Positions 29,327 through 47,371 of a stretch of DNA of 64,000 nucleotides are shown in pieces. The stretch comes from Minisyncoccia bacterium (GTDB taxonomy: Bacteria > Patescibacteriota > Minisyncoccia > UBA6257 > JAAZHW01). Where the stretch lies: positions 8,003 through 72,002 of the forward strand of contig JBFEPE010000001.1 of the NCBI GenBank assembly GCA_041550235.1, given 5' to 3'. Made by a program: the position numbers and the translations under genes. Below the pieces are notes generated by a model that ran no database searches, was not told the DNA's origin, and worked only from the letters and a program-made list of their open reading frames with translations. The first letter of the stretch is position 1. Every line of letters starts with the position of its first letter.

Positions 29327-29334
29327 TTAGCACA

Positions 29335-30774: not shown

Positions 30775-30837
30775 AGGGATTAAATTTTTAACAAAATCAT
30801 TGATAAATAGTTAAAAATAAGCGATAATATAGATATT

Positions 30838-33216
30838 ATGGATATAAAAATAGTAAATAAATATCTAAGTTCTCAAAAATTGAAAGCAGTGGAAATGCTT
30901 GATTTTGAAAATGGGAAAATAAAGTATTCTGATTTAATTAAACAATACAGGGAAATAAAGAATTTTAAAGGAAATGAAGAAATTGTTAGAGCTTATTTAT
31001 TATCCAAACTTTCTAATGAATTAGGATATAAGTTGGAAAATATTGAAATAGAAAAAGAATATGATATTGGTCGGCCAAAGGTTAATAAGCCAAGAATTGA
31101 TTTAATCGTCAGGGACGATGAAGGAAATGCTTTTCTATATGTTGAATTAAAAAGCCCTGAGGAATATGAAAAAAACAAGGATGAAGTAATTGAAAAACAA
31201 TTATTTGGCTTAACTTCTCAGGAAAAGGGACAAGGAAAAAATGTGAAATATCTTGTTCTCTATTCTTTTGAAATTATAAACGAAGAAATAAAAGATAGAG
31301 CAATTATTATTGATTATGAAAAATATTCATCTTTTGATAAGTGGGAAGAAGAAAGAAATTTTACTGATGAATTGCCAAAAAGATACGGTAAAGCCCAAAA
31401 AGAGCCATACAAAAAAGGTGGCAAAAAAGACTTGAGAGCCGATTTTGCTCCCGAAGAATTAGAAGCAAAAAGAAAAAATCTTCATAATGTTTTATGGGGT
31501 GGGGGCGGAACAGACGATAACGAAATCTTTGCCTCTTTGGTAAGAATTATTTTAGCTAAAATTCAAGATGAAACTGAAAGAAAAAATGGTGAAAAATATG
31601 AATTTCAGATTTTTTCTTTTCAAGACGGGGATAGCTTTGAAAGTAATGAAGAAATTTTTGAAAGAATAAATAAACTTTACAGAAGGGCTTTGAAGGAAAA
31701 AATGTATATTACCGATGAAAACAAGATAGAAAAATCTTTTGTTATTGATGAAAACAAGTTTTCTATTAGTAAATTAAAATATACTATTTCCGAGTTAGAA
31801 GAATATTCTTTTGTTGATGGAAAAGATAGCTTTAATGGAAAGGATATTTTAGGCCAATTTTTTGAGGGTATTGTCCGAGACGGCTTTAAGCAAAATAAAG
31901 GGCAATTCTTTACTCATTCTAATATTGTCCAATTTATCCTTTATGCCCTTCAATTAGATAAATTGGCGATAGAAAGAATAAATAAAGATAAAGAAATTCC
32001 TTATTTGATTGATCCTTCGGCTGGAAGCGGAACATTTTTGATTGAGTATATGAATTTTATTACTCAAAACATTAAATACAAACAAAAAGATAAATTAGAT
32101 AATAACCGAGATATTGAAGATAAATTCAATGACTGGTTTATGCCTTATAATAGAGAGAATAAATGGGCTAAAGATTTTATCTATGGCGTAGAACATAACT
32201 TTGATTTAGGAACTGCCTCAAAAGTTAATATGATTTTACACGGAGACGGCTCAACAAATATTTTTGTTAAAGACGGACTTCTTCCTTTTAATTACTATAC
32301 CAAAGACAAAGGAGTTAATATTCTTGATGATGAGAAAGAAGATAAAGAATATTTTGATAAGAATATCAACGGAAAATTTGATGCTATTATTACTAATCCG
32401 CCTTTCTCGGTGGATTTAGATAAAGATACTAAAAAAACACTAAAAGATAGTTTTGTTTTTGGGGATAAGAAAAATTCTGAAAATCTTTTTGTTGAAAGGT
32501 GGTATCAATTATTAAAAGAGAATGGAAGATTGGGAGCAGTCTTGCCTGAAAGTGTTTTTGATACTACGGAAAATAAATATATTAGATTATTTTTATATAA
32601 ATATTTTAAAATAAAGGCGGTTGTTTCTTTGCCTCAATTAGCTTTTCAGCCCTATACTTCCACTAAAACCAGCTTGCTTTTTGCCCAAAAGAAAACCCAA
32701 GAAGAAATTAAAAAATGGGATGAATTATGGGCGACTTATTCTAAGGATTATAGTCAATTAAAAACAAGGGTAGAAAAAGAGGTAGAACATTTTATCAAAG
32801 GAAAAGAAATTCAAAAGAGTTGGGCTATTGCTAAAGAAACAGAGAAAAGAAGAAAGGATAATGTTCTTTATCTTCTTAATCAAGTTATAGATAGAAAGAT
32901 TGATTTAGATTTATCTCTTCAAGAATTGGTTGAAAAATATCAAGACGAAATAATAGATCTGTTGAAAATAGAGAAAGAAACAGATGTTTTTGGCTTTGTT
33001 AATGCTTGGTGGGTATTTGGTGCTGTTTCTAAAGAATTGGATTATCCAATCTTTATGGCCGAAGTTGAAAATGTTGGTTATAAAAGGACAATAAGAGGAT
33101 TAAAACCAATGCCAAATGATTTATTCAGAAGGAATGAAAATGGCGAAATTATGATTGATGATAATAAAAAAGAAACCGCTTTAGATTTTATGAGGTCGGA
33201 TGTGGAGTGGGATTAA
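30838..33216 (+). CDS. Fused restriction-modification enzyme: N-terminal PD-(D/E)XK nuclease + gamma-class N6-adenine DNA methyltransferase (Type IIG/IIB A-subunit-like)
   Basis: PRIDLIV...FLYVELK (D...ExK). MTase motif I LIDPSAGSGTFL. Motif IV AIITNPPFS. HsdM-like VVSLPQLAFQPYTSTKTSLLF. 792 aa. Confidence 0.8.
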   Translation: MDIKIVNKYLSSQKLKAVEMLDFENGKIKYSDLIKQYREIKNFKGNEEIVRAYLLSKLSNELGYKLENIEIEKEYDIGRPKVNKPRIDLIVRDDEGNAFLYVELKSPEEYEKNKDEVIEKQLFGLTSQEKGQGKNVKYLVLYSFEIINEEIKDRAIIIDYEKYSSFDKWEEERNFTDELPKRYGKAQKEPYKKGGKKDLRADFAPEELEAKRKNLHNVLWGGGGTDDNEIFASLVRIILAKIQDETERKNGEKYEFQIFSFQDGDSFESNEEIFERINKLYRRALKEKMYITDENKIEKSFVIDENKFSISKLKYTISELEEYSFVDGKDSFNGKDILGQFFEGIVRDGFKQNKGQFFTHSNIVQFILYALQLDKLAIERINKDKEIPYLIDPSAGSGTFLIEYMNFITQNIKYKQKDKLDNNRDIEDKFNDWFMPYNRENKWAKDFIYGVEHNFDLGTASKVNMILHGDGSTNIFVKDGLLPFNYYTKDKGVNILDDEKEDKEYFDKNINGKFDAIITNPPFSVDLDKDTKKTLKDSFVFGDKKNSENLFVERWYQLLKENGRLGAVLPESVFDTTENKYIRLFLYKYFKIKAVVSLPQLAFQPYTSTKTSLLFAQKKTQEEIKKWDELWATYSKDYSQLKTRVEKEVEHFIKGKEIQKSWAIAKETEKRRKDNVLYLLNQVIDRKIDLDLSLQELVEKYQDEIIDLLKIEKETDVFGFVNAWWVFGAVSKELDYPIFMAEVENVGYKRTIRGLKPMPNDLFRRNENGEIMIDDNKKETALDFMRSDVEWD

Positions 33217-34672
33217 AAAAACTATGGGAAACAACCAAACTTCAGAAAAAATAAAAATAGAGATAAAAGATGTTATGCCTGACTTTAAAGAGCATTTATC
33301 ATTAAAAGGAAATGATAGAGTGTTTTTTTCTGGTAAATTTGGAATTGGAAAGAGTTATTTCTTAAAAGAATTTTTTAGATTAGGAGAGGAAAACTATGAG
33401 GTTTTTTATCTATTACCAACGAGGTATCAAATAAGTCCCAATGAAGATATTTTAGATTTTATAAAATACGATGTTTTAGTTGATTTAATAAATAAAAATA
33501 AAGAAATTTTTAAAGGCAACAATTTTAATAGCTTTATAGATCTAAAAAGATTGTTTTATATTTGGGGCAAGGATAATTTTTACGAGATTTTTAAAAAGGG
33601 GTTAGATTTTATTCCAAAATTAGGCAAACCTTTAAAAGAAGTCGTTAATTTAATTGATAATTTTAGAAATTTCAAATACGAAGTTGAATTAGGCGACAAG
33701 GGTTTTGTAGATAATTACATCAAGGAAATAAAGTCCAAAGATATAGTTGAAAGCGATCATTTAAGTTATTTATTAACTGAAAAAATAAACAATTTAAAAG
33801 GAGAAAAAGAAAGTGTTTTGATAATAGACGATTTAGATAGAATTGACCCAGACAATATTTTTAGAATTTTAAATATTTTTTCTGTTTATTTCAACGAAGA
33901 TAATTCTGAAATGCCTAATAAATTTGGTTTTGATAGGATTATTTTTGTTGGCGACCATAAAAATATAAGAAGTATTTTTAACCATAAATATGGAGAAAAT
34001 ACCGATTTCAGAGGTTATTTCAATAAATTTTTTAGATATAAAATTTATGAATTTGATAACGACAAGGCTATAGAAAATGCTGTAAGTATATTGATAGATA
34101 GTATGAAAGAAGTTGGAATAAATGTATCAAAAATTTTTGAAAAATTAGGATACGGCAGGCTTTTATTGGAAGATGTTTTAAAGAGATCAATAAATTTAAA
34201 ATCAAATAAAGAAAAGGTTAATTTAAGGCAACTTTTAAATGTTTATCTTTTTCCAAGTCTTCATTTAAAAGATAACAAATACTATAACGATCAATTTCTC
34301 TCTATTGCTAAGAAAATGATCCAATTTATAGATTTATCAATTAAGTTTTTAATTGATATTTTTGGTGGAGATGAAAAATTTTTGATAGAAGTTTTGAATA
34401 AGATAATTCTTGAATCTGGATTTTATAAAAATCAAAATTATAGAGATGACCTCTATAATCATTATTCAAGAGCTATATTAAGTGAGATTTTAAATAAAAA
34501 TTTTGTAAAAGATAGTAATAATCCTGCGGAAGAAAAGTGGGAAGAAAATTTAGGTAATGTTATAGGGAATGTGGCCGGAGGCCCTGAATTAAAAGTATTT
34601 TATACCTTGTTAATTAAATACTTAGAAAGTGGTAAATATAAAAAGGATAGTATTAGAAATTATGATTTATAG
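33200..34672 (+). CDS. KAP-family P-loop NTPase
   Basis: Walker A FSGKFGIGKSYFLKEF. KAP-type Walker B VLIIDDLDRIDPDNIF. 490 aa. Overlaps the preceding gene by 17 nt. Confidence 0.65.
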   Translation: MWSGIKKTMGNNQTSEKIKIEIKDVMPDFKEHLSLKGNDRVFFSGKFGIGKSYFLKEFFRLGEENYEVFYLLPTRYQISPNEDILDFIKYDVLVDLINKNKEIFKGNNFNSFIDLKRLFYIWGKDNFYEIFKKGLDFIPKLGKPLKEVVNLIDNFRNFKYEVELGDKGFVDNYIKEIKSKDIVESDHLSYLLTEKINNLKGEKESVLIIDDLDRIDPDNIFRILNIFSVYFNEDNSEMPNKFGFDRIIFVGDHKNIRSIFNHKYGENTDFRGYFNKFFRYKIYEFDNDKAIENAVSILIDSMKEVGINVSKIFEKLGYGRLLLEDVLKRSINLKSNKEKVNLRQLLNVYLFPSLHLKDNKYYNDQFLSIAKKMIQFIDLSIKFLIDIFGGDEKFLIEVLNKIILESGFYKNQNYRDDLYNHYSRAILSEILNKNFVKDSNNPAEEKWEENLGNVIGNVAGGPELKVFYTLLIKYLESGKYKKDSIRNYDL

Positions 34673-34681
34673 AGAATTAAA

Positions 34682-36124
34682 ATGCTAAAAAATTTTACAA
34701 CACAATTTAGAGATTTAGGCAAAGAAACATCAATTAGATTTGATTTCAGTTTTATTGATTTTCAAAATACTTTTTTAGTTAAAGATTATTATTCTTTTAG
34801 TGATTTATTTGAAATTAAGGAGAACAACAGAAAGGATATTTCTGAAATAAAGGATGATTTTTACTATTCAGAAATAGGAAATGTTAATAAATTGGGAGAG
34901 GTTGATCCAGTAAAATTAAATTTTGATGAAAAGTCTGAAGAATATTTAGATTATTTTAAGAAAATAGAGAGGGGAGATATTATTGAGGTCGGGGAAGGGG
35001 AAATTCTAATATCAAAAGTTCGTCCTAATCTAAAGAAATATGTTTTTATTGATGATAAAAATAAAGAATATTTTTATACTTCTGCTTTTATTCACTTAAA
35101 ACCAAAAAAATTAAATAAAGTTTTATATTATTCATTAAGAAGTTTATTTTTTGATAATTTAATAGCTATTTCAAGACAGGGCAAAGGTTATCCTACTTTG
35201 AAAAATGAAGATTTATATTACTTAAAATTCAATAAAGAAATGATTGATAAATTAGAAAGTAAAGAAAAAGATATAAATAGCAAAATAATCCCCAATGAAA
35301 ATAAAATTAAGGAATTGAAAGACAAAATAGAAAAACCGCAGGATATAATCAATGAAGTTTTTGCTAATGAATTTAGTTTTGATTTAAAAAAATTTGAGGA
35401 ATTAAAGAAAGAAAATATTTTTTCTGTTAATTTTAGTGATTTTTCTAATTACCACAGCCTAAGATTTGATTTTAAAAACAAGAAATTTTTTCCAATTTTT
35501 GAAGATATTATTTCAAAACTTGATACAATTAGACTAAAAAATATTGTTTTAGAAGATCCGCTTTATGGAGCAAATGAGCCTGCTATTGATGGTGTTGTTG
35601 GTAATGATATAAGATATGTAAGAATAACTGATATAGATGATTTGGGGGAATTAACAAATAACGAATGGAAAACCGCCGAAAATATAGACGAAGTTTATTT
35701 ATTAAAAGATTTAGATTTTCTTTTTGCGAGAAGTGGTAATACGGTCGGTAAAAGTTTTTTATATAATTCAAATAAACACGAAAAATCTATTTTTGCTGGA
35801 TATTTTATAAAATTTAAAATTGATTTTAAAAATTTAAATCAATTATTTTTCCTTTATTATTCAAAATCTTTTATTTTTGAATTATGGAAAAATGGAATTG
35901 TAAGAGTAAAGGGGCAACCAAATATAAATGCTAACGAATATTTAGAACTTCAAATTCCTAATATCCCATTATCTAAACAAAAAGAAATAGTTAAAAAAAT
36001 AAAATCTCGATTAGATAGACAAGAAGAAATCAAAAAAGAAATAGAAAAAGAGAGGGATAAGATAGATAAAATAATTGAAAATGCTATAATACAAACACTT
36101 GAGGGCTATAAGCCCCTGCTCTAA
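34682..36124 (+). CDS. Type I/IIB restriction-modification specificity (HsdS-like) subunit with two target-recognition domains
   Basis: Two TRD signatures (ISRQGKGYPTLKNEDLYYLKF; ARSGNTVGKSFLYN). C-terminal coiled-coil spacer KQKEIVKKIKSRLDRQEEIKKEIEKERDKIDKII. 480 aa. Confidence 0.7.
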   Translation: MLKNFTTQFRDLGKETSIRFDFSFIDFQNTFLVKDYYSFSDLFEIKENNRKDISEIKDDFYYSEIGNVNKLGEVDPVKLNFDEKSEEYLDYFKKIERGDIIEVGEGEILISKVRPNLKKYVFIDDKNKEYFYTSAFIHLKPKKLNKVLYYSLRSLFFDNLIAISRQGKGYPTLKNEDLYYLKFNKEMIDKLESKEKDINSKIIPNENKIKELKDKIEKPQDIINEVFANEFSFDLKKFEELKKENIFSVNFSDFSNYHSLRFDFKNKKFFPIFEDIISKLDTIRLKNIVLEDPLYGANEPAIDGVVGNDIRYVRITDIDDLGELTNNEWKTAENIDEVYLLKDLDFLFARSGNTVGKSFLYNSNKHEKSIFAGYFIKFKIDFKNLNQLFFLYYSKSFIFELWKNGIVRVKGQPNINANEYLELQIPNIPLSKQKEIVKKIKSRLDRQEEIKKEIEKERDKIDKIIENAIIQTLEGYKPLL

Positions 36125-36152
36125 AATTCGGGGTGAGGGTTTTTGTAAAAAT

Positions 36153-37706
36153 ATGAAATTATTATTAGCTGGGCCAGGGACAGGAAAAACAACAAAAATA
36201 AAAGAGATAATTAACTCCAAATCTGAGAAAGATAGGGTTCTTGTTATATCTTTTACTAATGCTACGGTTCAAGATCTTTTAGCCGATTTTCGCAAAGATG
36301 AAATTAACATAGAAGAAAAAGATTGTAGCACTTTACATAAATATGCTCTACGAATTAACCACCAAAAAAAATTACATATTTTGAATGAGTTTGAAAAAAA
36401 GATATTAGAATTTTATGCTAAAAAATTTAATTCTAATTTTGATGATTTATGTAGAACGCTTGGCTGTATAACCTTTGATCAAATGATCATACAAACATCC
36501 GAATATATAAAGTCAAATCCTTTATATCTAAACGAAATTATTGATGATATTGATTTGTTTATTGTTGATGAATACCAAGATTTCAACCTTATTGAAAGAA
36601 ATCTTATTGATCTAATAGCACAAAAAGCAAAAGATGTTTTTGTACTCGGCGATGATGACCAATGTATCTATGATTTCAAGGACGCAAATTCCGATGGCAT
36701 TATTGAGTTGTATAATTCAAAAAATGTTGAAAATGTTTCGCACGATCATATTTGTTATAGATGCCCCGATAAAATAGTCAGTGCTTGTTTTAATCTAATA
36801 AATAAAAACCAAAAGAGAATTAAAAAAGAGTGGAGGCCAAGTGAAAAAGAGGGAGATCTGATATTTAATCAGATATTAACACAACAGGAAACATCAGAAT
36901 ATATTTTGAATGAGATAAATAAAATTAAACAAGATGACCCCACTTCTTCTATTATGATATTATCTTCAGTAAGGTTTGCCGTTGAGGATTTATTAAATTT
37001 TTTTGATGATAACAAAATGGATTATGTTGATTTTTGGAAACCCAAAATGGATTTAGAAAAATTAAAAAGAATTTGGGAAATAAAAATCGTTTTTGGCGAA
37101 AAAAAATTATTAAATCTTTTATTCCTAATACAATTAAGCATTAAAGGAAAAAATAGCCACATAAAAAAGTGTCAAAAAATAATAAATGAAAATTTGGATT
37201 TTGATGATTTATTAGATTTTTCAAAAGAAAACAATTTATTGGGAGATGAAGTTATTAAATTATTTGATACTAAAATATCCTTAGAAGACATTCTAAAGAT
37301 TAAAAAATATGAATTCTTAAGCGATCACATAAGAGAAGAGTTTCTAAAAGAAGATTTAGAAAAATTGACAAAAATTGTATCGGAGCCAGTAGAATTTAAT
37401 CCAAGTGGAATAAATGTATCTTCTATACACAAATCAAAGGGACTACAGGCAGACTATGTTTTTATATTGGGGGTTGTTGAGGGAATAATACCTAATTCTC
37501 TAAAGGGATTAGATACGATTGAGGCTCAAAGAAGATTATTATTTGTTGGAATGAGTAGGGCAAAAAAGAGGCTTTATCTCGTCTCTACCGCTGAATGGGA
37601 TGGCAAATATGTTCATAGGGTTGATAAAAACAAATTTAAGTTTGATCCAAAATCAAGAAAACACTTAGCAAGCTCATCAATTTTTATTTCAGATCTTGAT
37701 TTATAA
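36153..37706 (+). CDS. UvrD/Rep-like superfamily 1 helicase (short, ~517 aa; listed ORF begins 36099)
   Basis: Walker A LLAGPGTGKTT. Motif II FIVDEYQDFN. Motif III VFVLGDDDQCIY. Motif V SSIHKSKGLQADYVFI. Motif VI LLFVGMSRAKKRLYL. Confidence 0.8.
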   Translation: MKLLLAGPGTGKTTKIKEIINSKSEKDRVLVISFTNATVQDLLADFRKDEINIEEKDCSTLHKYALRINHQKKLHILNEFEKKILEFYAKKFNSNFDDLCRTLGCITFDQMIIQTSEYIKSNPLYLNEIIDDIDLFIVDEYQDFNLIERNLIDLIAQKAKDVFVLGDDDQCIYDFKDANSDGIIELYNSKNVENVSHDHICYRCPDKIVSACFNLINKNQKRIKKEWRPSEKEGDLIFNQILTQQETSEYILNEINKIKQDDPTSSIMILSSVRFAVEDLLNFFDDNKMDYVDFWKPKMDLEKLKRIWEIKIVFGEKKLLNLLFLIQLSIKGKNSHIKKCQKIINENLDFDDLLDFSKENNLLGDEVIKLFDTKISLEDILKIKKYEFLSDHIREEFLKEDLEKLTKIVSEPVEFNPSGINVSSIHKSKGLQADYVFILGVVEGIIPNSLKGLDTIEAQRRLLFVGMSRAKKRLYLVSTAEWDGKYVHRVDKNKFKFDPKSRKHLASSSIFISDLDL

Positions 37707-37715
37707 ATAAAAACT

Positions 37716-38603
37716 ATGACAAAAAAAGAGAATGATTTGTTTATAAACGATTTTCCAATGGTAAATTCAGATGAAGAATTAGAAGAATTATCATTACAAT
37801 ACCCAAAATATGATCCATATTATATAGCCAGTGGCTCAATAAAGGACAGAAAAGAGTATTTTGAAAAACTTTGGAAGATTTATAGAAACTATGCTGATAA
37901 GCATTTTTTGAAAGAAGTTAAAACCAATTTTCATCAGAGGAGTTGGGAGATGTATTTATCTAATTTATTTATTGAAAATGGATTTGAAATTTCCTCTAAA
38001 GATAAGGGGCCTGATATAAAAATTGATTTGGGAGATAGGAATTTATGGATAGAATGCGTGGCTTCAAAAAAAGGCGAGAAATCTGATAAGGTTCCAGATA
38101 TGATGTATGAGGTTGTTCAAGATGTGCCAGCAGATAAAATGTTATTAAGAATAACCAACTCAATAGATAAAAAATTTAAGAAATATCAAAAATATGTGAA
38201 AGACAGCATAATAAAAAAAGGGGATTATTATATTATTGCTGTGAATGCCGGAGGGTTTGGATATATTGTTGATACAGATATGCCTTTAATTCTTAAATGT
38301 TTAATTTCTATTGGTTTTTGGAGTTATAAAAAATTAGAAGATGGATCATTTAGTAAGCCATTTCTTAGCAGGAGAGAATATATAGAAAAACAAAACAAGA
38401 AAAAAGTAAAAATGAATTATTTTGAAGATAAGAAATATAATGGAATTAGCGGAGTTATCTATACTCCAAACAATGTTCTAAATTTAAGAGATAAAGATGA
38501 TTGTATATTTATTAGCAATCCCTTGGCTAAAAATGAGTTGCCAAAAAGTTATTTACCATTTATTCGTGAAGTCAAAATAACAAAAGATAAAATAATTTTT
38601 TAA
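37716..38603 (+). CDS. Hypothetical protein with possible PD-(D/E)XK nuclease core
   Basis: GPDIKIDLGDRNLWIECVASKKG resembles a D...E.K active-site arrangement. Otherwise unrecognised. Confidence 0.4.
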   Translation: MTKKENDLFINDFPMVNSDEELEELSLQYPKYDPYYIASGSIKDRKEYFEKLWKIYRNYADKHFLKEVKTNFHQRSWEMYLSNLFIENGFEISSKDKGPDIKIDLGDRNLWIECVASKKGEKSDKVPDMMYEVVQDVPADKMLLRITNSIDKKFKKYQKYVKDSIIKKGDYYIIAVNAGGFGYIVDTDMPLILKCLISIGFWSYKKLEDGSFSKPFLSRREYIEKQNKKKVKMNYFEDKKYNGISGVIYTPNNVLNLRDKDDCIFISNPLAKNELPKSYLPFIREVKITKDKIIF

Positions 38604-38612
38604 TACGAAAAT

Positions 38613-39065
38613 ATGATAAAAATAAGAAACAAAAAAATTGAAGTTTTGGTTGCCTATACTACTCCCGAAATGTGGGATGCTGTTGAAGATACAAAAATAG
38701 CAGTTCAGGGCCAAAGTGCCAAAGACGCTGATTATTTTGCTTTTGCGAGAATGGGATTAAAAGAAAATAAAGGAAGAGCGATAATTACTCATATTGCCGA
38801 AATTGGCAAAACAAAATCAAATGTTCCAGTTGAAGAATATATTAAAAAATTTCCTAAATTATCAGAATACTTTAGAAAAAGAAATTGGAATGGTTTTAGT
38901 AAGGAATACTATTTAGAGAATATCCGAGAATTAAAAAATCCCATTTATCATAAAATAGGCGACAAAGCCAAGGGAAGAGTAAGATTTTATACAAATTTGA
39001 ATGAGTTAAAAAATGCTAATTTTATGAGGGATATTAAAACATTAAGTCAGTTAAATAAAAGATAA
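38613..39065 (+). CDS. Hypothetical protein (150 aa)
   Basis: Tightly linked within the operon (10-nt gap). No family recognised. Confidence 0.4.
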   Translation: MIKIRNKKIEVLVAYTTPEMWDAVEDTKIAVQGQSAKDADYFAFARMGLKENKGRAIITHIAEIGKTKSNVPVEEYIKKFPKLSEYFRKRNWNGFSKEYYLENIRELKNPIYHKIGDKAKGRVRFYTNLNELKNANFMRDIKTLSQLNKR

Positions 39066-39321
39066 AAATATGGTAGTTTATTATGGTCCGCCAGATATGA
39101 GCGGGATTGAAAAAGAAATAGAGAAATCAAATTCTTCATCTACTCGTTATAACAAGAAAATGCTTTGGGTGGCTGTGGCAACTTTGATTTTTACCATTAT
39201 CGCAGTGGCTATAAGTGCTTATTTAATACTTTGATTTTTTCAATAATTGGTTTAGAAATTTTATTGTTAGAATTTTTATTAAAGTTGAAAATCATAAAGA
39301 AATTAAAAAACATTAAAAACT

Positions 39322-41454
39322 ATGGAAATATCACAATTATTATCAGCAATAAACAAAAAAGAAATAGTCGTTCCTGAGTTCCAAAGAGAATATGTTTGGA
39401 GATTAGAACAAGCAAAAGAATTGATGACTTCTCTGTTTAAGGATTATCCAACAGGAAGTATTTTAGTTTGGCCAACAAATAAACCGCCAAAGATAAAAAA
39501 CAATGCTGTTGATATTAAAGATATTGGGACGGTTAGGGTTTTATTAGATGGCCAACAGAGATTAACCACTTTATATCTCTTAATTAAAGGACAAATTCCG
39601 CCATATTACAGAGAAGACGACATAACGAATGATCCAAGACATTTATATTTCAATTTAGAAACAGGAGATTTCAACTACTATCAAAAACAAAAAATGGAAG
39701 GGAACTCTTTTTGGAAAAGAGTTGTTGATTGTTTCAATGATGATTTTGATATTTTTTCTTTGGAAAATGATATAAAAGAAAAAGGTGGAGATTTTTCTGA
39801 ATTAGGGAGAAAAATAAACAATAACATTGGAAAATTAAAAAGTATTTTAAGAGAAGATTATCATATTCAACAAGTTCCCGATGGGGTAGAAATTGATGAA
39901 GCTATTGATATTTTTGATAGAGTTAATTCAAAAGGAACAAAACTTACTGATGCCGAGCTTGTTTTAACTCATATCGCTGGAAAATGGCCGGAAGTTAGAG
40001 AGAAGATGAAAGAAAGCATAAGAGAATATAGAAAAACTGGTTTTGATTTTAGTTTAGATTTTCTAACAAGATGTATGACAATAATTATTACCAAATCAGC
40101 CCTCTTTGAAAAAATGAATGATGAGATTTATAAGAATACAAGAGAAGAAGATTATAAAGAAAAATGGAAAAATCTAACCAAGATATTTAATTATTTGCTT
40201 CCAATCTTAAAAGAAAATGGTTATATAAACGGAAGTGGAGATTTAAGCACTAATAATGTTTTAGTTCCAATAGTTGCCTATATTTCTCAAAATTCTTTTT
40301 CTTTTCCAAATACTCCAATTAGAAACTATTTCTTATACTGGATGTTTTTGGCTTCTGTTTGGGGCCGATATAGTAGCCGAACCGACCAAAGTTTAGACAG
40401 AGATGTTTATCTTGCTATAAACAGCCAAAATCCGATAGATGACTTACTTAAAGAAATAGAAGACCAAAGGGGAAGATTAGAGGTAAAACAAGCAGATTTA
40501 GAAGGGAGAGGATCGGCACACCCGCTCTATAAAATGCTTGGAATTTTGGCTCGGTATAATAAGGCGATTGACTGGAAGAATGGCGGATCTCTCAATGAAA
40601 CATTAGGAGAAGAATATGCTATTCATAGTCATCATATTTTTCCACAAGGTCTTTTATATAAAAATGGATATACTTCCGATAATCATTTAGATAAAAAAAT
40701 TGTTAATGAGATAGCAAATAGGGCTTTTATAACAAGAGATGCCAACCTTGATATTTCAGACAAGAAACCGCTTGATTATCTAAGAGAAATAAAGAAAAAA
40801 TATCCCGAAGCTCTAAAACAGCAATTTATACCTGAATTTGAAAATTTATGGGATATAGGCAAATTTAGAGATTTTTTGGCCGAAAGAAGAATTTTAATAG
40901 CTCAATCTATAAATGATTTTCTTGATAATCTAAAAGCTGAAGGTGAAAAGATAGAGATTGATAGAGTTGATTATGAAAAGATTATAGAAAGAGGAGAAGA
41001 CAATTACATAGAGTTCAAATCTTCTTTAAGGTGGGATATGAATAGAAATACAACTAACTCAGATTTAAAAAAAGAAATAGCCAAAGCAATGTCAGCCTTT
41101 ATGAATACGGAAGGAGGCAGATTATTTATTGGAGTTAATGATGAGGGTGAAATTTTAGGATTAGATAATGATTATAAGACATTAGGAACACGACAAAATA
41201 AAGACGGATTTCTTCAAAAAATGGATCAGGTAGTTGAAAATTACTTAGGAAGGGAATTTTTTGAGTATATTAGCATTAAGATAATAAAAATAGATGATAA
41301 GGATGTCTGTTTAGTTGAATTAACTAATAGCGGAAAACCTGTCTATCTGAAATTAAAAGACAAAGAGGAGTTTTATATTAGGGGATCAGCCTCTTCTCGT
41401 CCATTAAGTTTGAGTGAAGCCAATGAATATATTAAAAATCATTCTTGGGAATAA
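39322..41454 (+). CDS. GmrSD-like Type IV restriction-type protein: DUF262 (ParB-like NTPase/nuclease) + DUF1524 (His-Me/HNH) + C-terminal Schlafen/AlbA_2 domain
   Basis: N-terminal VVPEFQREYVW (DUF262). Central EYAIHSHHIFPQGLL...NRAFITRDANLDISDK (DUF1524). C-terminal IEFKSSLRWD...AFMNTEGGRLFIGVNDEGEILGL (AlbA_2). Confidence 0.75.
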   Translation: MEISQLLSAINKKEIVVPEFQREYVWRLEQAKELMTSLFKDYPTGSILVWPTNKPPKIKNNAVDIKDIGTVRVLLDGQQRLTTLYLLIKGQIPPYYREDDITNDPRHLYFNLETGDFNYYQKQKMEGNSFWKRVVDCFNDDFDIFSLENDIKEKGGDFSELGRKINNNIGKLKSILREDYHIQQVPDGVEIDEAIDIFDRVNSKGTKLTDAELVLTHIAGKWPEVREKMKESIREYRKTGFDFSLDFLTRCMTIIITKSALFEKMNDEIYKNTREEDYKEKWKNLTKIFNYLLPILKENGYINGSGDLSTNNVLVPIVAYISQNSFSFPNTPIRNYFLYWMFLASVWGRYSSRTDQSLDRDVYLAINSQNPIDDLLKEIEDQRGRLEVKQADLEGRGSAHPLYKMLGILARYNKAIDWKNGGSLNETLGEEYAIHSHHIFPQGLLYKNGYTSDNHLDKKIVNEIANRAFITRDANLDISDKKPLDYLREIKKKYPEALKQQFIPEFENLWDIGKFRDFLAERRILIAQSINDFLDNLKAEGEKIEIDRVDYEKIIERGEDNYIEFKSSLRWDMNRNTTNSDLKKEIAKAMSAFMNTEGGRLFIGVNDEGEILGLDNDYKTLGTRQNKDGFLQKMDQVVENYLGREFFEYISIKIIKIDDKDVCLVELTNSGKPVYLKLKDKEEFYIRGSASSRPLSLSEANEYIKNHSWE

Positions 41455-41690
41455 TTATGCTATCAAAATAAGAAACAAAAAATTTTATCAAAAAGCATAT
41501 AGGGATAATTTTGATGAAGAAATTATTAGAAAAGAAATAGGCAAAACAGGTGTTAGAATAACCAATTTATTTGAGAGAGTTTTTGGCCTATTTAAATTAA
41601 AATAAATAGAATAGAATGGATTATTATTGAGAGAAAAGAATTAAAAAACTGATAATTGAAACCAGTTTTTAATACTCCGAAATTAAACCA

Positions 41691-42575
41691 TCAGTCATCA
41701 TCCACCAAATCAGTCTCAAAAATCGCATAAATCGGATAATGGTCTGAAATGTCTTCAATCAAATCTTGGTCCGTAATCCCGTATTCTTGGTCAAAGTAAA
41801 AGACACTGGCTGTATTGGTTGAGTATTCAGAGAAATAAGTGTCTGCCTTCATAACAATCCGGTCATAAGTCCAGTCGGTTTTAGTCATTGTATCCATATC
41901 ATTACTGATTACCCAGTAATGATTTATTGTTTTGAAGGGATTTGTTGTTGTATTTTCATCAAAATAACTTCCATCGGCATTAAAGTCTCCCATTACAATA
42001 ATATCTTTTTCATTGGGATTTTGAGAAAGAATATAATTATATACATCTTCTAAATGGGCTATTTCTCTGTTTGTATCATCGGGTTTAGTGTGAATCCCTG
42101 CTAATGTAAAATCAAAATCTCCACTTCTGAAAGAAGCAATATATGGTTCTCTCTCAAAAACATTTCTTATGTCATTATAGATATAATCAGAGCCAGTAAT
42201 AAAATTTACCTTGTCTGTATTATAGAAGTAAGCATAAGATTCTTTACTATTTGTTCTTCCTACCCCCTCGCTTTTTACAAAGGCATATTTATCAGAGCCA
42301 ATATCTTCATTTATCTTTTCTAAATAATAATCTGCTGTTTCTTCTTGGGCATCTCTTATTTCCTGAACCAACATAATATCAAATTCTTGAGCTATTTTAA
42401 CTAATTGCTCCATTACTTCGGGCTTATTTCTTTTTGTTTCCCCAAATATCTGAATGTTAAAAGCCCCCACCTTGATTGGACCGGGAAGAGTAGATTGACT
42501 TGTTCCAAAGAATACAAGAACTCCAGCCAAAATTGCTGGAATTATGATTTTTAATAATTTTTTGATATTAAACAT
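41691..42575 (-). CDS. Secreted/membrane-anchored endonuclease-exonuclease-phosphatase (DNase I-like) family nuclease
   Basis: N-terminal signal/TM. EEP motifs GAFNIQIFG, MLVQE, GIHTKP, GDFNA and SDHYP. Confidence 0.75.
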   Translation of the reverse strand: MFNIKKLLKIIIPAILAGVLVFFGTSQSTLPGPIKVGAFNIQIFGETKRNKPEVMEQLVKIAQEFDIMLVQEIRDAQEETADYYLEKINEDIGSDKYAFVKSEGVGRTNSKESYAYFYNTDKVNFITGSDYIYNDIRNVFEREPYIASFRSGDFDFTLAGIHTKPDDTNREIAHLEDVYNYILSQNPNEKDIIVMGDFNADGSYFDENTTTNPFKTINHYWVISNDMDTMTKTDWTYDRIVMKADTYFSEYSTNTASVFYFDQEYGITDQDLIEDISDHYPIYAIFETDLVDDD

Positions 42576-42581
42576 AACTTT

Positions 42582-42815
42582 TTAATGAATTCTATCTCTT
42601 GGTGGCATTGGATCTTTCCCATAACTATCTTTATCCTGTATTTTTCCATCTTTCCCGTGAATTATATGTTCTACTTCATCTTTTTTGGCTTGTTTAATGG
42701 ATGCTTTTATTGCCCGATCTTTTGTTGAATGAGAAGAAAGAGGGGTTTTTCTTCCTTCTTGGATTGTTCGCCACCCTCCATCCTTATATGTTGTGTGAAT
42801 GTTTTTCTTAGGCAT
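42582..42815 (-). CDS. Small hypothetical protein (DUF2188-like?)
   Basis: YKDGGWRTIQEG...AIKASIKQAKKD resembles small KGGW proteins. Weak. Confidence 0.35.
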   Translation of the reverse strand: MPKKNIHTTYKDGGWRTIQEGRKTPLSSHSTKDRAIKASIKQAKKDEVEHIIHGKDGKIQDKDSYGKDPMPPRDRIH

Positions 42816-42936
42816 AATTTTTATTTAATTAACGACCTTTGTAAAAATCCGAAAACTGAATTACTTCCGATTTTTATAAATCCTTGAATTAGATTTGCTT
42901 TTATTATATCAGAATTAGTGTTAAAGTTAAACCAAT

Positions 42937-43131
42937 ATGCTAACAGATAAAGAAATAGATGATTTTATTGAGTTATACAAGAAAAAATTTGGAAAAGAAA
43001 TTGGCAGAGAAGAGGCGATTAGAAAAGGGGCAAAATTAGTTCGGCTTGTAGAAGCTATTTTGAAACCTAAAGATAGTAATCCTAAAAAAGCGGAACATAT
43101 TATTGATGAAAGCCACAAAAAACCTATTTAA
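42937..43131 (+). CDS. Small hypothetical protein (64 aa), possible DNA-binding
   Basis: Helical, basic. Located upstream of the iteron-like repeats. Confidence 0.3.
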   Translation: MLTDKEIDDFIELYKKKFGKEIGREEAIRKGAKLVRLVEAILKPKDSNPKKAEHIIDESHKKPI

Positions 43132-43169
43132 TAAATGGGTTTTTGTTTATTTTTTATGATAAAAGTAAT

Positions 43170-43465
43170 AAAAAAATGCTGGCTACTACTGGCTACGCGA
43201 GGGGGTAATGACAAAAAATACTTAAATTTTTAAGTGATTGGGAAAACTTAATATCAAAACCTAAAAAAGCAAGTAAATAAAAGGTTTTTTCTATTTTTTA
43301 GGTCAAAATAATTATCAAAAAAATGATGGCTACTAATGGCTACAAGAAGGGATTATAAAATAAAAAATCTTGGAAAATCTTGGAAATTTGAGGGGGTATG
43401 ACAACATAGGTAGTGCTGTTTTTTTGTTTGCCCTATTGATTTTTTAGGGTAAAATAAGGTTATAA
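43170..43465. repeat. Two ~140-bp tandem units each with paired TGGCTAC iteron-like direct repeats spaced 10 bp
   Basis: tggctactactggctac (43180-43196) and tggctactaatggctac (43326-43342). Further shared blocks gggggta(a)tgacaa and tttt(t)agg(g)t(c/a)aaataa. Confidence 0.65.
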
Positions 43466-43480
43466 TTTTGTTAACAAAAA

Positions 43481-44308
43481 ATGAAAGATAATAAAGAAAA
43501 CAAAAAATCCTATTTAACTCAAGGAGATAAGAAATTATTGATATCTTTTAGAAGATTTTTGAAAAGAGAGCCAGTTTTATTAAAAATTCAAGATTTAAGA
43601 AAGAAATATGATATACCAAAAAATGGATTAAAAAAGAATGAAGTTTTTAAGCCAAATGAAGATGGATATCAAATCTATGTGGGAGATTTTGATTTTCCAA
43701 TCAGGATTGATTTTAATTCCGCCCTTAGAAAAGATATTAAAGAATATCTTCTTGAAGAATTTCCTGTAAAATCTAATTTTATTATACATCTAACGAAGAT
43801 GTTTATTTTGTATAACAACATTGATGATTATATAGATTTTGATAAATCCAAAGAAGAAGTTGATTTAGAATTATTTAACATATTTGATTTAGTTGATGAT
43901 ATGGAGATAGGTTATGATGTTATGAATGATCGTGATGCTGGGACTGGTCAAATTCACGGCTTTATTGAAGAAATAATGAATAGAGGAATGGAATATCCAA
44001 TTTCAATAGGAATACCAAACGGAGCCACTAAAAGGGATTTATTAGAATATATAAAGAAAAATTGGAATAAAATTGAAAAATTAAGAAATTCCAAAAAAGA
44101 AAATAAAAAATGGTTAGCCGTAAGAAAAAGTAATCCCGAGATTGAGAGAAGAGATGATTTTATTTATAAGCATAGAAAAAAATCATTAAAAGAAATAAAG
44201 GATTTAGTTATAGAAAAATTTGAAGGAAGTTTAGATGGCGATAGAAGGATTTTATATACTTGGCAAATTAAAAATATAATTGATAGAGAAAAGAAAAAAA
44301 GGAGCTAA
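43481..44308 (+). CDS. Hypothetical protein (275 aa) upstream of second integrase
   Basis: No family recognised. Lys-rich termini. Confidence 0.45.
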   Translation: MKDNKENKKSYLTQGDKKLLISFRRFLKREPVLLKIQDLRKKYDIPKNGLKKNEVFKPNEDGYQIYVGDFDFPIRIDFNSALRKDIKEYLLEEFPVKSNFIIHLTKMFILYNNIDDYIDFDKSKEEVDLELFNIFDLVDDMEIGYDVMNDRDAGTGQIHGFIEEIMNRGMEYPISIGIPNGATKRDLLEYIKKNWNKIEKLRNSKKENKKWLAVRKSNPEIERRDDFIYKHRKKSLKEIKDLVIEKFEGSLDGDRRILYTWQIKNIIDREKKKRS

Positions 44309-44417
44309 GTGTATCACACTTAGTTTTTAGTGCCATTTCGTTTTATTTCTTAAAATCTGGTTAATAATCAGATTTTTTTATTTTTCAAGAAATATCTGAT
44401 TTAAGATTTTAGGAAAT

Positions 44418-45344
44418 ATGAAAGATCTATTTGAACAATTTATAAAACAGCAAGAATATGTTGAAAGGAAAAGAAAAAAGACGATAGAAAATTATCGGCA
44501 GAATTTTAATTTATTGTTTGGCTTTAAGCCTGATTTGAAATTGGAAGATTTAACCGAAGAAACAATGATTGATTTCTTTGAGTATCTTGATACAAGGGAA
44601 AGAAGGGTCGGAAAGAAAATGATTGTTAGAAAAATTAAAAATTCCAGTATCGCCACAATAAGAGGAAAATTAGAGGTATTTTTTAGGTGGTTAGTTGATA
44701 GGGAGCATATCAAATCTAATCCATTTGAAAAAATACCATACCCGGAAGTTTCCTACACAAGCAAAGAGGCTTTCACGAAAGAGGAATTTGATAAAATTTT
44801 TATAAACATCGTTAGAGATATTAAATGGGTCAATGATTTTTTGCGAAAAAGAAACACAGCAATGATAATGACTTTAGTATTAACTGGGATAAGAAGAGAA
44901 GAGTTATTAGAATTAAAGCTGTCTGATATTGATTGGAAGAATAAAAAAATAACAATTAGAGATGAAACTTCTAAATCTAAAAGAACAAGAACTATTCCTA
45001 TGTCGCCAGATTTGAGGCCATTTTTAGAGGATTATTTAATAACCAGAACTAATAAGAAAAATAGTTTTCTTTGGGTCAATGGCAGAGATGAAAAATTTAC
45101 TGAACACGGCTGGAAGCATCTTGTTAAAAAACTAAAAGAAGAAACAGAAACTAATTTCCGCACCCATAGATTTAGACATACATTTGCTTGTAATTATTAT
45201 CGGCAGAGAAAAGATCCGGTTGGATTACAAAAAATGATGGGACATCAAGATATTAAAACTACTTTTAAGGTATATTTGCGATCCATAGATGATGATGATT
45301 TAACAAAAGAAATGAATAAATTTAAGATTTCTAAGTTTTATTAA
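44418..45344 (+). CDS. Tyrosine site-specific recombinase/integrase (second copy, divergent from 27749)
   Basis: HRFRHTFACNYYRQRKDPVGLQKMMGHQDIKTTFKVYL. N-terminal SAM-like core-binding domain. 308 aa. Confidence 0.9.
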   Translation: MKDLFEQFIKQQEYVERKRKKTIENYRQNFNLLFGFKPDLKLEDLTEETMIDFFEYLDTRERRVGKKMIVRKIKNSSIATIRGKLEVFFRWLVDREHIKSNPFEKIPYPEVSYTSKEAFTKEEFDKIFINIVRDIKWVNDFLRKRNTAMIMTLVLTGIRREELLELKLSDIDWKNKKITIRDETSKSKRTRTIPMSPDLRPFLEDYLITRTNKKNSFLWVNGRDEKFTEHGWKHLVKKLKEETETNFRTHRFRHTFACNYYRQRKDPVGLQKMMGHQDIKTTFKVYLRSIDDDDLTKEMNKFKISKFY

Positions 45345-45550
45345 AAATGGTCTTGCTAAAGTAAAATGTATCCGCTATTATTGAAGCATCTTAACAATTA
45401 AACAGCTTTTCTTTTTTGCTTTTTAGGGTCTTTTTTCCAAATGAGCGAAATTGGTAAATGGGTCGTGCTAAAAACCAAGTGTTTTGAGTGAAAATCCCCA
45501 TTTTATCAGGTTTTATCGGCATTTTTAGAGAAAAAGGGTGGAGCTGTTTA

Positions 45551-45592
45551 ATGGTAAGGAGTAGGTCAGCGGTTCAAGTCCGCTCATTGGCT
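45551..45592 (+). pseudogene. 3' half of the split tRNA-Thr(GGT) gene
   Basis: atggtaa-ggagt-aggtc-agcgg-ttcaagt-ccgct-cattggc-t. Complements the 5' half at 27457-27494 (gccaatg/cattggc, actcc/ggagt). Confidence 0.75.
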
Positions 45593-45599
45593 CTTTTAG

Positions 45600-45625: not shown

Positions 45626-45636
45626 TTTTTCTTTTA

Positions 45637-45716
45637 AAAATATGTTAAAATATATACATATTTAGAGGGCAAAAGCCCCTGCTCTGAATCTTTGGGGTAG
45701 GGGTTTTAATATAAAT
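45637..45716 (+). repeat. Copy 1 of a ~50-bp direct repeat plus hairpin cassette (second copy at 48282-48371; partial third at 36101-36152)
   Basis: aaaaatatgttaaaatatatacatatttagagggcaaaagcccctgctct...ggggtaggggtttt...atATG. Confidence 0.75.
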
Positions 45717-46928
45717 ATGAACAAAGATATATCTAAAATTTTTATACCAAAACTTACATATAATGAGTTATCTTTTGTTAAAGGGAAGGGGGTTCCAGCA
45801 ATAATAATGGATGCTTATTTAGTTGCTTATAGAAAAAAAGTTGCTGATAAAATCAGACAGGAAACAAGTTTGTTTATCATTGATCCTAATACCAATTATT
45901 TTGTTGATGATTATTGTAAGAAAAAACCTAGTTTTAAAAGTTTATCAACTACCCCAAAGAAACCATATAAAATAGATGAATTATTGACCGATGAAGGAGT
46001 TAGAAAATACGAAATGGTTTTAAATAATATTAGAAATCAGATAAATAACAATGCTGGATTAATAATATTGCCTTATTTATATATGGACAGCATAGATGAT
46101 GTTAAATTTAATTTAAATTTAACGATGATTAGTGATGGTTTGAGAGTTATAAAAGATAATAAAATAAAATACCCGACATATGCAATGATTAATATAGGTA
46201 ATAATATTTTTAATGATTATTCTAAAATAGATTTCTTAATAGGAAGATATTTTGTTGATTTCAAAAATGAATTAGACGGATATTTTGTAATGATAAACAA
46301 TTTTGATTGTCGCAGAGCTAGTAAAGAGGAGTTATTGGGATTAGCATATTTAACTTTTCGTTTATCAGGAAAAAAGGATCTTTATTTTTTGAAGATGGGA
46401 GATTATGGAGAAATTCTTTGTAGTATAGGTGCTACTGGTTATAGTAGTAGTTTGGCTGGAGGCGAAACTTTTAATGCAGACAATTTATCTAAGAAAAAAA
46501 TAGGAAAGATTTTTGGTAGGAATCATAAGGAAATAACTTATGTAGCTGAATTATTTATTTATCTAAATGATGAGATTTTAAAGAAGATAAAGTATTCTTG
46601 CGATTGTGAAGTTTGTAAAGGCAATATCCCAAGCAGCTGGAATGATACGAGGATGCATTTTCTCAATAGAAAATTAATGGCGATAGAGGAATTAAATAAG
46701 ATAGAAGATGGTGAAAAAATTAAATTTATGATTTCTAAAATAAATAATTCTATTGAACAAGTCGCTGAATATAATTCAAAATTTGCCCCCTTGTCAATTA
46801 AAGCAGATTTTCTTTTGAAATGGAAGCAAGTTTTAAAAGAAGTAATAAATTGGAAAGACGATGACTCAAAGAAAGTTGATACGATTGATTTAGATAAAAT
46901 TATAGAGGAGGCACGAAAATCTCAATGA
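45717..46928 (+). CDS. Hypothetical protein (403 aa) with tRNA-guanine-transglycosylase-like motifs
   Basis: VMINNFDCRR (cf. TGT catalytic xMFDCV) and SCDCEVCKG (CxCxxC zinc subdomain) followed by H 15 aa later. Otherwise unrecognised. Confidence 0.45.
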   Translation: MNKDISKIFIPKLTYNELSFVKGKGVPAIIMDAYLVAYRKKVADKIRQETSLFIIDPNTNYFVDDYCKKKPSFKSLSTTPKKPYKIDELLTDEGVRKYEMVLNNIRNQINNNAGLIILPYLYMDSIDDVKFNLNLTMISDGLRVIKDNKIKYPTYAMINIGNNIFNDYSKIDFLIGRYFVDFKNELDGYFVMINNFDCRRASKEELLGLAYLTFRLSGKKDLYFLKMGDYGEILCSIGATGYSSSLAGGETFNADNLSKKKIGKIFGRNHKEITYVAELFIYLNDEILKKIKYSCDCEVCKGNIPSSWNDTRMHFLNRKLMAIEELNKIEDGEKIKFMISKINNSIEQVAEYNSKFAPLSIKADFLLKWKQVLKEVINWKDDDSKKVDTIDLDKIIEEARKSQ

Positions 46929-47371
46929 ATATAGTCCCCGATACTAATTTGTTATTAAAGGGATTATTGTTTAGGGGTGATGCTAGACAAATAATCAATT
47001 TAGCTTATTCAAAAAAAATAAACCTTTATGGGAGTAAGGGCTCTTTTGAGGAGATAAAGAGAGTCGTTTATTATAAAAATTTTAAAAAATATCTTGAAAA
47101 AGAAATTTATACGCCAGAGAAATTAATTGTTTCTTATAGATCATTAATTAATATAGCTACAATAAACAAAAATTATAAAGATTTGAAAGTTGTAAAAGAT
47201 GATCCAGACGATGATGAATTCTTAAAAATAGCAAAGACAATAGAATCGCAGATCATAATATCTAGCGATAAGCATTTAAGAAGAATCGAAAAATATGATG
47301 ATATCAGAATAATAGAGCCAGAGATTTTTATTAAAATTTACCCTAAAATATTAGGCAGAAAATTCATTTAA
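46925..47371 (+). CDS. PIN-domain nuclease
   Basis: MNIVPDTNLLL (first acidic residue), DDPDDDEFL, ISSDKHL. Start overlaps the upstream gene (ATGA). Confidence 0.7.
   Translation: MNIVPDTNLLLKGLLFRGDARQIINLAYSKKINLYGSKGSFEEIKRVVYYKNFKKYLEKEIYTPEKLIVSYRSLINIATINKNYKDLKVVKDDPDDDEFLKIAKTIESQIIISSDKHLRRIEKYDDIRIIEPEIFIKIYPKILGRKFI

Follow-up and report, generated by a model that had tools for sequence, protein, structure and literature searches.

A BrxU-like GmrSD protein with a C-terminal Schlafen domain is carried on a tRNA-integrated genomic island of a Minisyncoccia bacterium

We analysed 64,000 nucleotides of DNA from a Minisyncoccia bacterium (contig JBFEPE010000001.1, positions 8,003 to 72,002, forward strand; hereafter the window). 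At 39322-41454, the window encodes a 710-amino acid protein in which a GmrSD body, resembling the restriction enzyme BrxU, is followed by a Schlafen domain. On balance, we consider it probable that this gene specifies a single-polypeptide anti-phage system, carried as island cargo. The protein would combine a nucleoside triphosphatase (NTPase) switch with two nucleases and hence have three active sites. This view draws on residue conservation, a predicted structure and analogy with characterised relatives. The DUF262-Schlafen architecture has already been published, as class pSlfn7, and one member, EcoSlfn7, has been validated. Not described in the literature searched is the retention, by the widespread long form, of an intact predicted His-Me DNA nuclease beside the Schlafen site.

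The open reading frame (ORF) is exactly as given in a first-pass annotation, made by a model from the DNA letters. It has an ATG start and 710 codons followed by a stop. The start is backed by more than 100 homologues with the same first residue. The same two Pfam domains occur in over 120 full-length homologues, which are about 707 amino acids long. All motifs quoted in the annotation were located: FQREYVW at residues 20-26, HSHHIFPQ at 435-442, NRAF at 466-469 and IEFK at 563-566. The protein also contains DGQQR (76-80), NTEGG (595-599) and FIGVNDEG (602-609). The features of the gene are:

39322-41454, + strand: whole gene, BrxU-like GmrSD with a putative C-terminal Schlafen nuclease domain, 710 amino acids (ORF list, translation)
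39328-39972, + strand: DUF262/GmrSD_N (ParB-like NTPase) domain, residues 3-217 (PF03235, E=1.9e-32)
39376-39390, + strand: EFQRE motif of DUF262, residues 19-23 (family alignment; aligned with BrxU AIQRE)
39547-39561, + strand: DGQQR nucleotide-hydrolysis motif, residues 76-80 (85/85 sequences; equivalent to BrxU D98-R102)
39973-40557, + strand: alpha-helical linker, about residues 218-412 (DSSP of the AlphaFold2 (AF2) model; BrxU alignment)
40558-40956, + strand: predicted His-Me finger (DUF1524-like) nuclease domain and trailing long helix, about residues 413-545 (HEC-05 profile)
40624-40647, + strand: HSHHIFPQ, predicted catalytic motif, residues 435-442, counterpart of BrxU DHIYP (aligned with BrxU FHVDHIYPKG)
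40705-40728, + strand: NEIANRAF, residues 462-469, with the Asn residues of the HNH/His-Me motif (family conservation)
40996-41406, + strand: Schlafen/AlbA_2 domain, residues 559-695 (PF04326, E=7.3e-20)
40996-41019, + strand: Ex4ExK Schlafen catalytic motif, E559-DNYI-E564-F-K566 (aligned with pig SLFN11 ESQSIEFK by the family profile)
41140-41142, + strand: D607 in FIGVND, third acidic residue of the Schlafen site (aligned by the family profile with the second Asp of SLFN11 GVDD; also with SLFN5 GVHDE)

Both terminal domains named in the annotation were recovered above their Pfam cut-offs. DUF262 scored 113.5 bits (cut-off 33.2) and SLFN_AlbA_2 scored 72.1 bits (cut-off 25.3). Pfam thus confirms the GmrSD_N.SLFN_AlbA_2 architecture of pSlfn7 in one polypeptide. 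No NCBIfam model matched the protein. Comparison of a family profile with BrxU (7p9k) aligned the DUF262 region with E=6.4e-21, and hhalign gave it a probability of 99.1%. An AF2 model was built from a 28-sequence alignment (mean predicted local distance difference test score 85.7, predicted template modelling score 0.68). According to DSSP, the model is all helical between about residues 210 and 412. This fits the GmrSD family, in which an alpha-helical linker of 200-400 residues joins the two domains (PMC4619093). The linker can be aligned to that of BrxU as far as about residue 327.

The annotation also placed a DUF1524 His-Me finger in the middle of the protein. The domain itself is backed by a BrxU-family profile and by the fold, whereas the Pfam model for DUF1524, PF07510, stays below threshold. 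The BrxU-family profile of PADLOC, HEC-05, matches residues 2-536 with E=7.6e-51. When residues 385-545 were isolated, they matched the nuclease end of the same profile (positions 485-594 of 600, E=6e-9). In a Foldseek comparison, the AF2 model aligned with the whole chain of BrxU 7P9K over 617 columns (E=2.7e-15). The high root-mean-square deviation from BrxU is expected, because GmrSD domains are flexibly linked and the crystal form is an intertwined dimer. In this region, the model has strand-helix elements at residues 434-438, 467-471 and 472-478. The (D/E)H...N nuclease motif of GmrSD proteins was judged to be present, with the acidic residue before the catalytic His replaced by His. We conclude that the first 545 residues are predicted to form a complete BrxU-type GmrSD enzyme, consisting of a DUF262 NTPase, a helical linker and a His-Me finger.

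Conservation was assessed in 85 sequences. These were the query and 84 members, 42-64% identical to it, gathered at 80 loci of species-representative genomes and three of metagenomes. The members' hosts are Patescibacteria, Omnitrophota, Chloroflexota, Bacteroidota, Proteobacteria, Planctomycetota and several archaeal lineages. In the EFQRE motif, each of E19, R22 and E23 occurs in 84/85 sequences and Q21 in 83/85; the motif is invariant in the 28-sequence alignment (28/28). DGQQR is unchanged throughout. For the His-Me finger, H437, H438 and N466 are each present in 84/85 sequences, while F440 and N462 are present in all 85. The Schlafen residues E559, E564, K566 and D607 are each found in 83/85. 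In BrxU, mutation of S42 and the substitutions Q101A, R102A, D474A and H475A abolish defence, and mutagenesis identified DHIYP as the nuclease motif (PMC8565348). By our reading of the alignments, the counterparts of BrxU S42, Q101, R102, D474 and H475 would be S37, Q79, R80, H437 and H438. All but that of D474 are identical in the two proteins, and the five are conserved in 83-85 of the 85 sequences. Such conservation between bacteria and archaea, at this level of identity, points to purifying selection on all three sites. The family was found in 224 species-representative bacterial and archaeal genomes. Residues 385-710 gave 312 matches at E<=1e-30 against 1.84 billion cluster representatives at 50% identity. 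Many of these are proteins of about 700 amino acids, aligned over both the His-Me and Schlafen domains.

The annotation described the C-terminal domain as a nucleic-acid-binding module. A Schlafen-type domain is indeed present, but the conserved Ex4ExK and D607 speak against a non-catalytic role. The family profile matched the SLFN11, SLFN12 and SLFN14 chains in this region with E=1e-7 to 1e-6. Foldseek matches to the domain were DIP2311 (3lmm), the SAMD9 tRNase domain (9o0d/7ksp) and SLFN11, SLFN14, SLFN12, SLFN5 and SLFN13. Ex4ExK has been defined as catalytic, and mutational analysis showed that RorSlfn5 depends on it for defence; in prokaryotic Schlafens the motif is required for both tRNA cleavage and defence (PMC13056530; 10.1101/2025.07.24.666596). 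Since this motif and D607 are intact, a second nuclease effector is more likely than a binding module. Human and pig SLFN11, SLFN13, SLFN14, the SAMD9 tRNase domain and bacterial RorSlfn5 share the fold and an Ex4(E/D)xK plus Asp site with the window protein. All of these cleave tRNA as antiviral effectors and are joined to modules for sensing or regulation (PMC13056530; 10.1101/2025.07.24.666596). Here, by contrast, the fused partner is itself a predicted nuclease.

The Schlafen domain is a movable add-on to the GmrSD body. In several plasmid-borne relatives within this GmrSD subfamily, similarity to the query is confined to residues 1-539. Conversely, the relatives nearest to the Schlafen domain alone, at 45-52% identity, form the C-termini of an SNF2 helicase, a BrxL Lon-like protease, a DEAD/MZB helicase, a DUF4420 PD-(D/E)XK protein, SBP_bac_3 proteins and sigma70_r4/HARE-HTH proteins. 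Because the module occurs on unrelated, mostly self-sufficient defence proteins, an effector fits better than a DNA-specificity adaptor. This agrees with a published view of Schlafen RNases near BREX as suicidal effectors that serve as a back-up (PMC12839542).

The closest relatives of the GmrSD body without a Schlafen domain are Nostoc pNPM2 WP_104902226.1 and similar plasmid proteins. The Nostoc protein is 34% identical over residues 1-539 (E=3e-101) and contains VHHIFP...NAIAN. It differs in having an extension of about 245 amino acids, with no Pfam match, in place of the Schlafen domain. Its gene lies in a defence locus, adjoining DISARM drmC. We note that the C-terminus is a swap site in this GmrSD subfamily, as seen with the Nostoc extension (4001-6319 of locus L088).

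In the mechanism that we propose, the ParB-like DUF262 domain would bind and hydrolyse nucleoside triphosphate (NTP) using S37 and DGQQR, as in BrxU. Hydrolysis would then drive a change in oligomeric state, by analogy with the ATP-dependent dimer-to-monomer shift of BrxU (PMC8565348). The His-Me finger (H437-H438, N462, N466) would cut DNA, probably foreign and possibly base-modified. The Schlafen lobe, in the last ~150 residues, may cut tRNA or other RNA once the GmrSD body engages phage DNA. RNA cutting would add translational shutdown to DNA restriction. Eukaryotic Schlafens have two-lobed cores, whereas the window protein has a single lobe, so oligomerisation would probably be needed. Switching between dimer and monomer could gate two single-lobe Schlafen domains into an active clamp. 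More tentatively, as a possibility that falls short of being probable, the family may unite two modes of defence in a dual-nuclease enzyme. Its BrxU-like body would recognise and cut phage DNA, possibly modified, and its NTP cycle would gate the Schlafen tRNase, so that translation is shut down as well, a built-in abortive-infection back-up. If so, the back-up would come into play when a phage blocks or outpaces restriction. The mechanism would also be a prokaryotic counterpart of the reported activation of SLFN11 tRNase by single-stranded DNA binding. On this view, the Schlafen cassette found on BrxL and on SNF2 and DEAD/MZB helicases would serve DNA-targeting defence proteins in general as a "suicide add-on".

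The published class pSlfn7 is the obvious comparison. Taboada et al. catalogued 5,930 prokaryotic Schlafen proteins (10.1101/2025.07.24.666596; Nat Microbiol 2026, PMC13056530). Fusions to DUF262 account for 1.8% of these, as pSlfn7 with 109 members; the same row bears the value 0.76, which we read as a defence score (PMC13056530). EcoSlfn7, a DUF262-Slfn protein of E. coli UC4224, lowers T7 plating 538-fold (PMC13056530). No mechanism is given for pSlfn7, and GmrSD, HNH and ParB are absent from the main texts (10.1101/2025.07.24.666596; PMC13056530). We identified EcoSlfn7 as WP_028985442.1, a 589-amino acid protein in a P2-like prophage. Like the window protein, it has an N-terminal DUF262 and a C-terminal SLFN_AlbA_2 domain in one polypeptide, and is a single-gene module on a mobile element. 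It is the sole member of the architecture class with demonstrated anti-phage activity.

Several points weigh against our interpretation. EcoSlfn7 is much shorter than the window protein (589 against 710 amino acids) and only 23% identical, in DUF262 alone. Its DUF262 is of the NsnA/PD-T4-2_A type, and the BrxU profile covers just residues 8-58. No His-Me motif or domain was detected in EcoSlfn7 by motif inspection, PADLOC or hhalign of a His-Me sub-alignment (E=0.21). Transfer of its function to a protein so distant, and with a His-Me finger, is therefore weak. The AF2 model is that of a monomer. The isolated middle segment scores only 15.9 bits (E=0.012) for PF07510, below the 23-bit cut-off. 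Direct hhalign comparison of the His-Me sub-alignment with the C-terminus of BrxU recovered only a 14-residue motif, SHHIFPQ/VDHIYPK (E=0.06). Pairwise similarity is thus not what the nuclease assignment leans on; its support is the PADLOC profile, the fold and transitive homologues. Where BrxU has an essential Asp in front of the catalytic His, the window protein has a second His. An HH pair is an ordinary HNH variant, found for example in colicin DNases. Finally, the Schlafen matches include PDB 7ksp, titled "hSAMD9_DBD with DNA". Schlafen/AlbA_2 domains can thus bind DNA, and RNA cleavage is not the sole possible role.

The PF07510 result is open to a simple explanation. BrxU also falls under the cut-off, with 17.0 bits over the same profile positions. 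Because a crystallised enzyme of this type fails too, a sub-threshold score is not evidence of absence. A full-length family member from the Haloquadratum plasmid PL100, 40.7% identical to the query, scores 21.9 bits. The Nostoc plasmid relative scores 22.7 bits. We conclude that the Pfam DUF1524 model under-detects the BrxU branch. The comparison with EcoSlfn7 can likewise be refined. The pSlfn7 table also has, among the entries listed, long forms of about 705-765 amino acids with domain positions like those of the window protein. An example is NC_013159.1_200 (DUF262 13-229, Slfn 603-750). The RefSeq genomes of our homologue loci did not appear among the entries listed. Judged by sequence, the pSlfn7 bin mixes at least two unrelated kinds of fusion, a short kind without a DNA nuclease and a long kind with a predicted one. 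EcoSlfn7 is probably an independent fusion event. The window protein appears to be of the long kind and is better described as a BrxU-like GmrSD plus Schlafen.

Other divisions of labour between the domains have to be weighed. The DUF262 and His-Me body might only sense phage DNA or NTP status, with the Schlafen RNase as sole effector of abortive infection. In the view of Taboada et al., the partner domains of pSlfn fusions are sensors (PMC13056530; 10.1101/2025.07.24.666596), and EcoSlfn7 defends without a His-Me domain. We nevertheless regard this as rather unlikely. Retention of H437, H438, N462 and N466 in 84-85 of 85 sequences is unexpected for a mere binding role; the body is that of a complete GmrSD, and relatives in the same subfamily do without the Schlafen domain. 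It is quite unlikely that the Schlafen site instead acts on DNA, for instance single-stranded or nicked phage DNA, making double-strand breaks together with the His-Me finger. For an enzyme that tracks along DNA, having two nuclease sites would offer an easy route to cleaving both strands, and matches were obtained to entries titled as nucleic-acid or DNA binding (SLFN5-N 7cux, SLFN14 9nyy). However, RorSlfn5 cuts tRNA and was reported as unlikely to act on DNA (PMC13056530). Cash, another characterised prokaryotic Schlafen, is also reported to cut tRNA. The first-pass annotation pictured a Type IV restriction enzyme whose AlbA_2 domain, without being catalytic, tunes DNA target specificity. 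AlbA_2-type domains do bind nucleic acids, as 7ksp illustrates, and GmrSD homologues bear varied C-terminal extra domains (PMC4619093). The intact Ex4ExK and D607, aligned with the SLFN11 active site, and the presence of the same Schlafen subtype on proteins that do not cut DNA (BrxL, SBP_bac_3), make this model very unlikely.

A different kind of alternative concerns the upstream operon, to which the annotation suggested that the protein might be coupled. The gene would then be the terminal component of the methyltransferase/KAP NTPase/S-subunit/UvrD/PD-T7-5-like operon and work only with it. Orientation is shared, and no terminator-like site was found between operon and gene. Moreover, GmrSD-like genes are often embedded, in the same orientation, in Hma, BREX and type I restriction-modification (RM) loci (10.1101/2024.01.29.577857). 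Conversely, a gap of 256 bp with a separate 54-amino acid ORF divides the two, and embedded GmrSD proteins such as BrxU act alone (PMC8565348). We also recorded, at 60-odd loci, the closest ORF on either side of the homologue, and searched the resulting 123 proteins with Pfam. N6_Mtase, the commonest neighbour family, accounts for only 10 of the 123, followed by Eco57I (6) and ResIII (4). Three homologue loci were inspected and all differ: a toxin-antitoxin/abortive infection island, an SNF2/N6_N4 methylase/ResIII operon, and a housekeeping region beside HipA and DarT-Macro. The gene set upstream in the window did not recur beside the homologues examined. Dependence on the operon is thus highly improbable. 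Since no partner is shared among these neighbours, we conclude that the gene is an autonomous unit with a tendency to settle near RM or other defence genes.

If all three sites of the proposed dual-nuclease enzyme work, the protein is a compact natural experiment, wiring a DNA-sensing restriction enzyme to an RNA-cutting Schlafen effector. Human SLFN11 and SAMD9 are currently proposed to follow the same logic. The family is widespread and the protein small enough for direct biochemistry. An annotation of "DUF262 domain-containing protein" hides a predicted His-Me nuclease, missed by Pfam, and a probable tRNase. In itself the find is modest; the architecture class was already catalogued, with one member shown to defend against phage.

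BrxU, a GmrSD-family Type IV restriction enzyme from Escherichia fergusonii pEFER (PDB 7P9K/7P9M), is the best guide to the GmrSD body. A HEC-05 homologue is 99.2% identical to it (10.1101/2024.01.29.577857). BrxU and the window protein have DUF262, helical linker and His-Me finger in the same order. Identity is low, at about 20-26%. In the window protein DHIYP becomes HHIFP and RLFDS becomes ELMTS, with Ser alone retained, and about 165 extra C-terminal residues make up the Schlafen domain. A BREX-embedded GmrSD was considered and rejected. BrxU sits between brxC and pglX on pEFER, whereas PADLOC and Pfam found no BREX genes flanking the gene in the window. The founding Type IV enzymes, GmrSD and Eco94GmrSD (E. 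coli CT596/STEC_94C), act against glucosylated hydroxymethylcytosine DNA (PMC4619093, PMC4437046). They share the DUF262, linker and DUF1524 layout, with an HNH nuclease stimulated by NTP (PMC4619093, PMC4437046), but have no Schlafen domain. The extra GmrSD domains listed by Machnicka et al. in 2015 are DUF4268, DUF4357 and DNA_binding_1; AlbA_2 is unmentioned (PMC4619093). The annotation had also named SspE, a GmrSD-like nicking enzyme that senses phosphorothioate (PDB 6JIV). SspE is alike in its DUF262 plus DUF1524-type architecture, but as a comparator it did not stand up. Partial matches to PADLOC SspE models gave 1.9e-6 and 6e-4, and the family profile gave E=0.34 against 6jiv. In PADLOC and Pfam searches, neither the seven ORFs upstream (29593-39065) nor the nuclease gene downstream matched an Ssp or Dnd model. 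Hence, an SspE-like reading was rejected, as similarity is marginal and ssp linkage is lacking. Dependence on modified DNA, as in Type IV enzymes, is plausible from the homology to BrxU. However, EcoSlfn7, the only DUF262-Slfn protein assayed and a distant one without a His-Me domain, restricts T7, which to our knowledge carries no hypermodified bases.

The gene lies in a 17.9-kb genomic island (27651-45596), integrated at a tRNA-Thr(GGT) gene (27651-27725). The boundaries are marked by a direct repeat, with a recombinase gene beside the right end:

27683-27727, + strand: attL, 3' half of tRNA-Thr(GGT), left island end (45-nucleotide direct repeat, 91% identical to 45552-45596)
45552-45596, + strand: attR, repeat of the tRNA-Thr 3' half, right island end (direct repeat)
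44418-45344, + strand: tyrosine recombinase (island integrase) beside attR (PF00589 Phage_integrase, E=1.8e-31)

Because att repeats enclose this block, with a tyrosine recombinase gene inside, the gene is cargo of an integrated defence island. G+C content is 0.32-0.37 before the island (20-28 kb) and 0.24-0.32 inside. It is still low, at 0.26-0.29, beyond attR to about 50 kb. The island contains an RM-like operon, the GmrSD-Schlafen gene and a membrane nuclease gene. A location among defence genes is therefore confirmed, with the RM-like operon, a GajB-like UvrD helicase and a PD-T7-5-like gene on the same island.

The operon (30838-39065, + strand) consists of six genes, is of unusual make-up and lacks HsdR. 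It encodes a protein with HSDR_N_2 and N6_Mtase domains and weak MAD2 similarity, a KAP-family NTPase and an HsdS-like specificity subunit. The remaining products are the GajB-like UvrD helicase, a PD-T7-5/PD-T7-1-like protein and a 150-amino acid protein without a match. Possibly, the operon represents a defence system that is Type IIG/MADS-like or composite. The 54-amino acid ORF in the gap (39070-39234, + strand) has a hydrophobic C-terminal helix (MLWVAVATLIFTIIAVAISAYLIL) and no Pfam match. A scan for promoters and terminators around the GmrSD-Schlafen gene performed no better than on shuffled sequence. Convergent to the gene, at 41691-42575 on the minus strand, is an Exo_endo_phos nuclease gene. 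Its product has an N-terminal hydrophobic segment and weak similarity to the MnuA membrane nuclease, and is probably a secreted or surface DNase.

Two further elements were noted near the left end of the island. A full-length LOOT RNA motif (Rfam RF03000, 86.6 bits) lies inside it at 29418-29539 (+ strand), directly upstream of a multi-pass membrane-like ORF (29593-30564). Just before the island, at 27113-27494, are three tandem repeats of about 104 nucleotides with a tRNA-like 5' start (GCCAATGTAGCTC). A further stretch, 27456-27494, matches the 5' half of tRNA-Thr at 87% identity. All are tRNA fragments or pseudo-tRNAs, and perhaps scars of earlier integrations.

Elsewhere in the window, an 83-nucleotide repeat (83% identical, core AGGGCAAAAGCCCCTGCTCT) occurs at 45628-45710 and 48274-48356, directly upstream of the ORFs that begin at 45717 and 48372. 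The core is present a third time, at 36089-36123, where the UvrD-like gene starts (36099). The repeat may be a shared regulatory or hairpin element. Just outside attR, the segment 45717-47371 (+ strand) encodes a 403-amino acid protein without a match, overlapping by 4 nucleotides with a PIN_3-domain protein (46925-47371). The two may form a toxin-antitoxin-like or defence pair. The 23S rRNA gene (15016-19428, + strand) measures 4413 nucleotides against 2925 in the model, indicating insertions of about 1.5 kb. Within it, the ORF 17409-17756 encodes 115 amino acids, including ...IYIGIT..., with the look of a GIY-YIG homing endonuclease. The finding points to an intron in the rRNA gene, a common feature of candidate-phyla-radiation bacteria.

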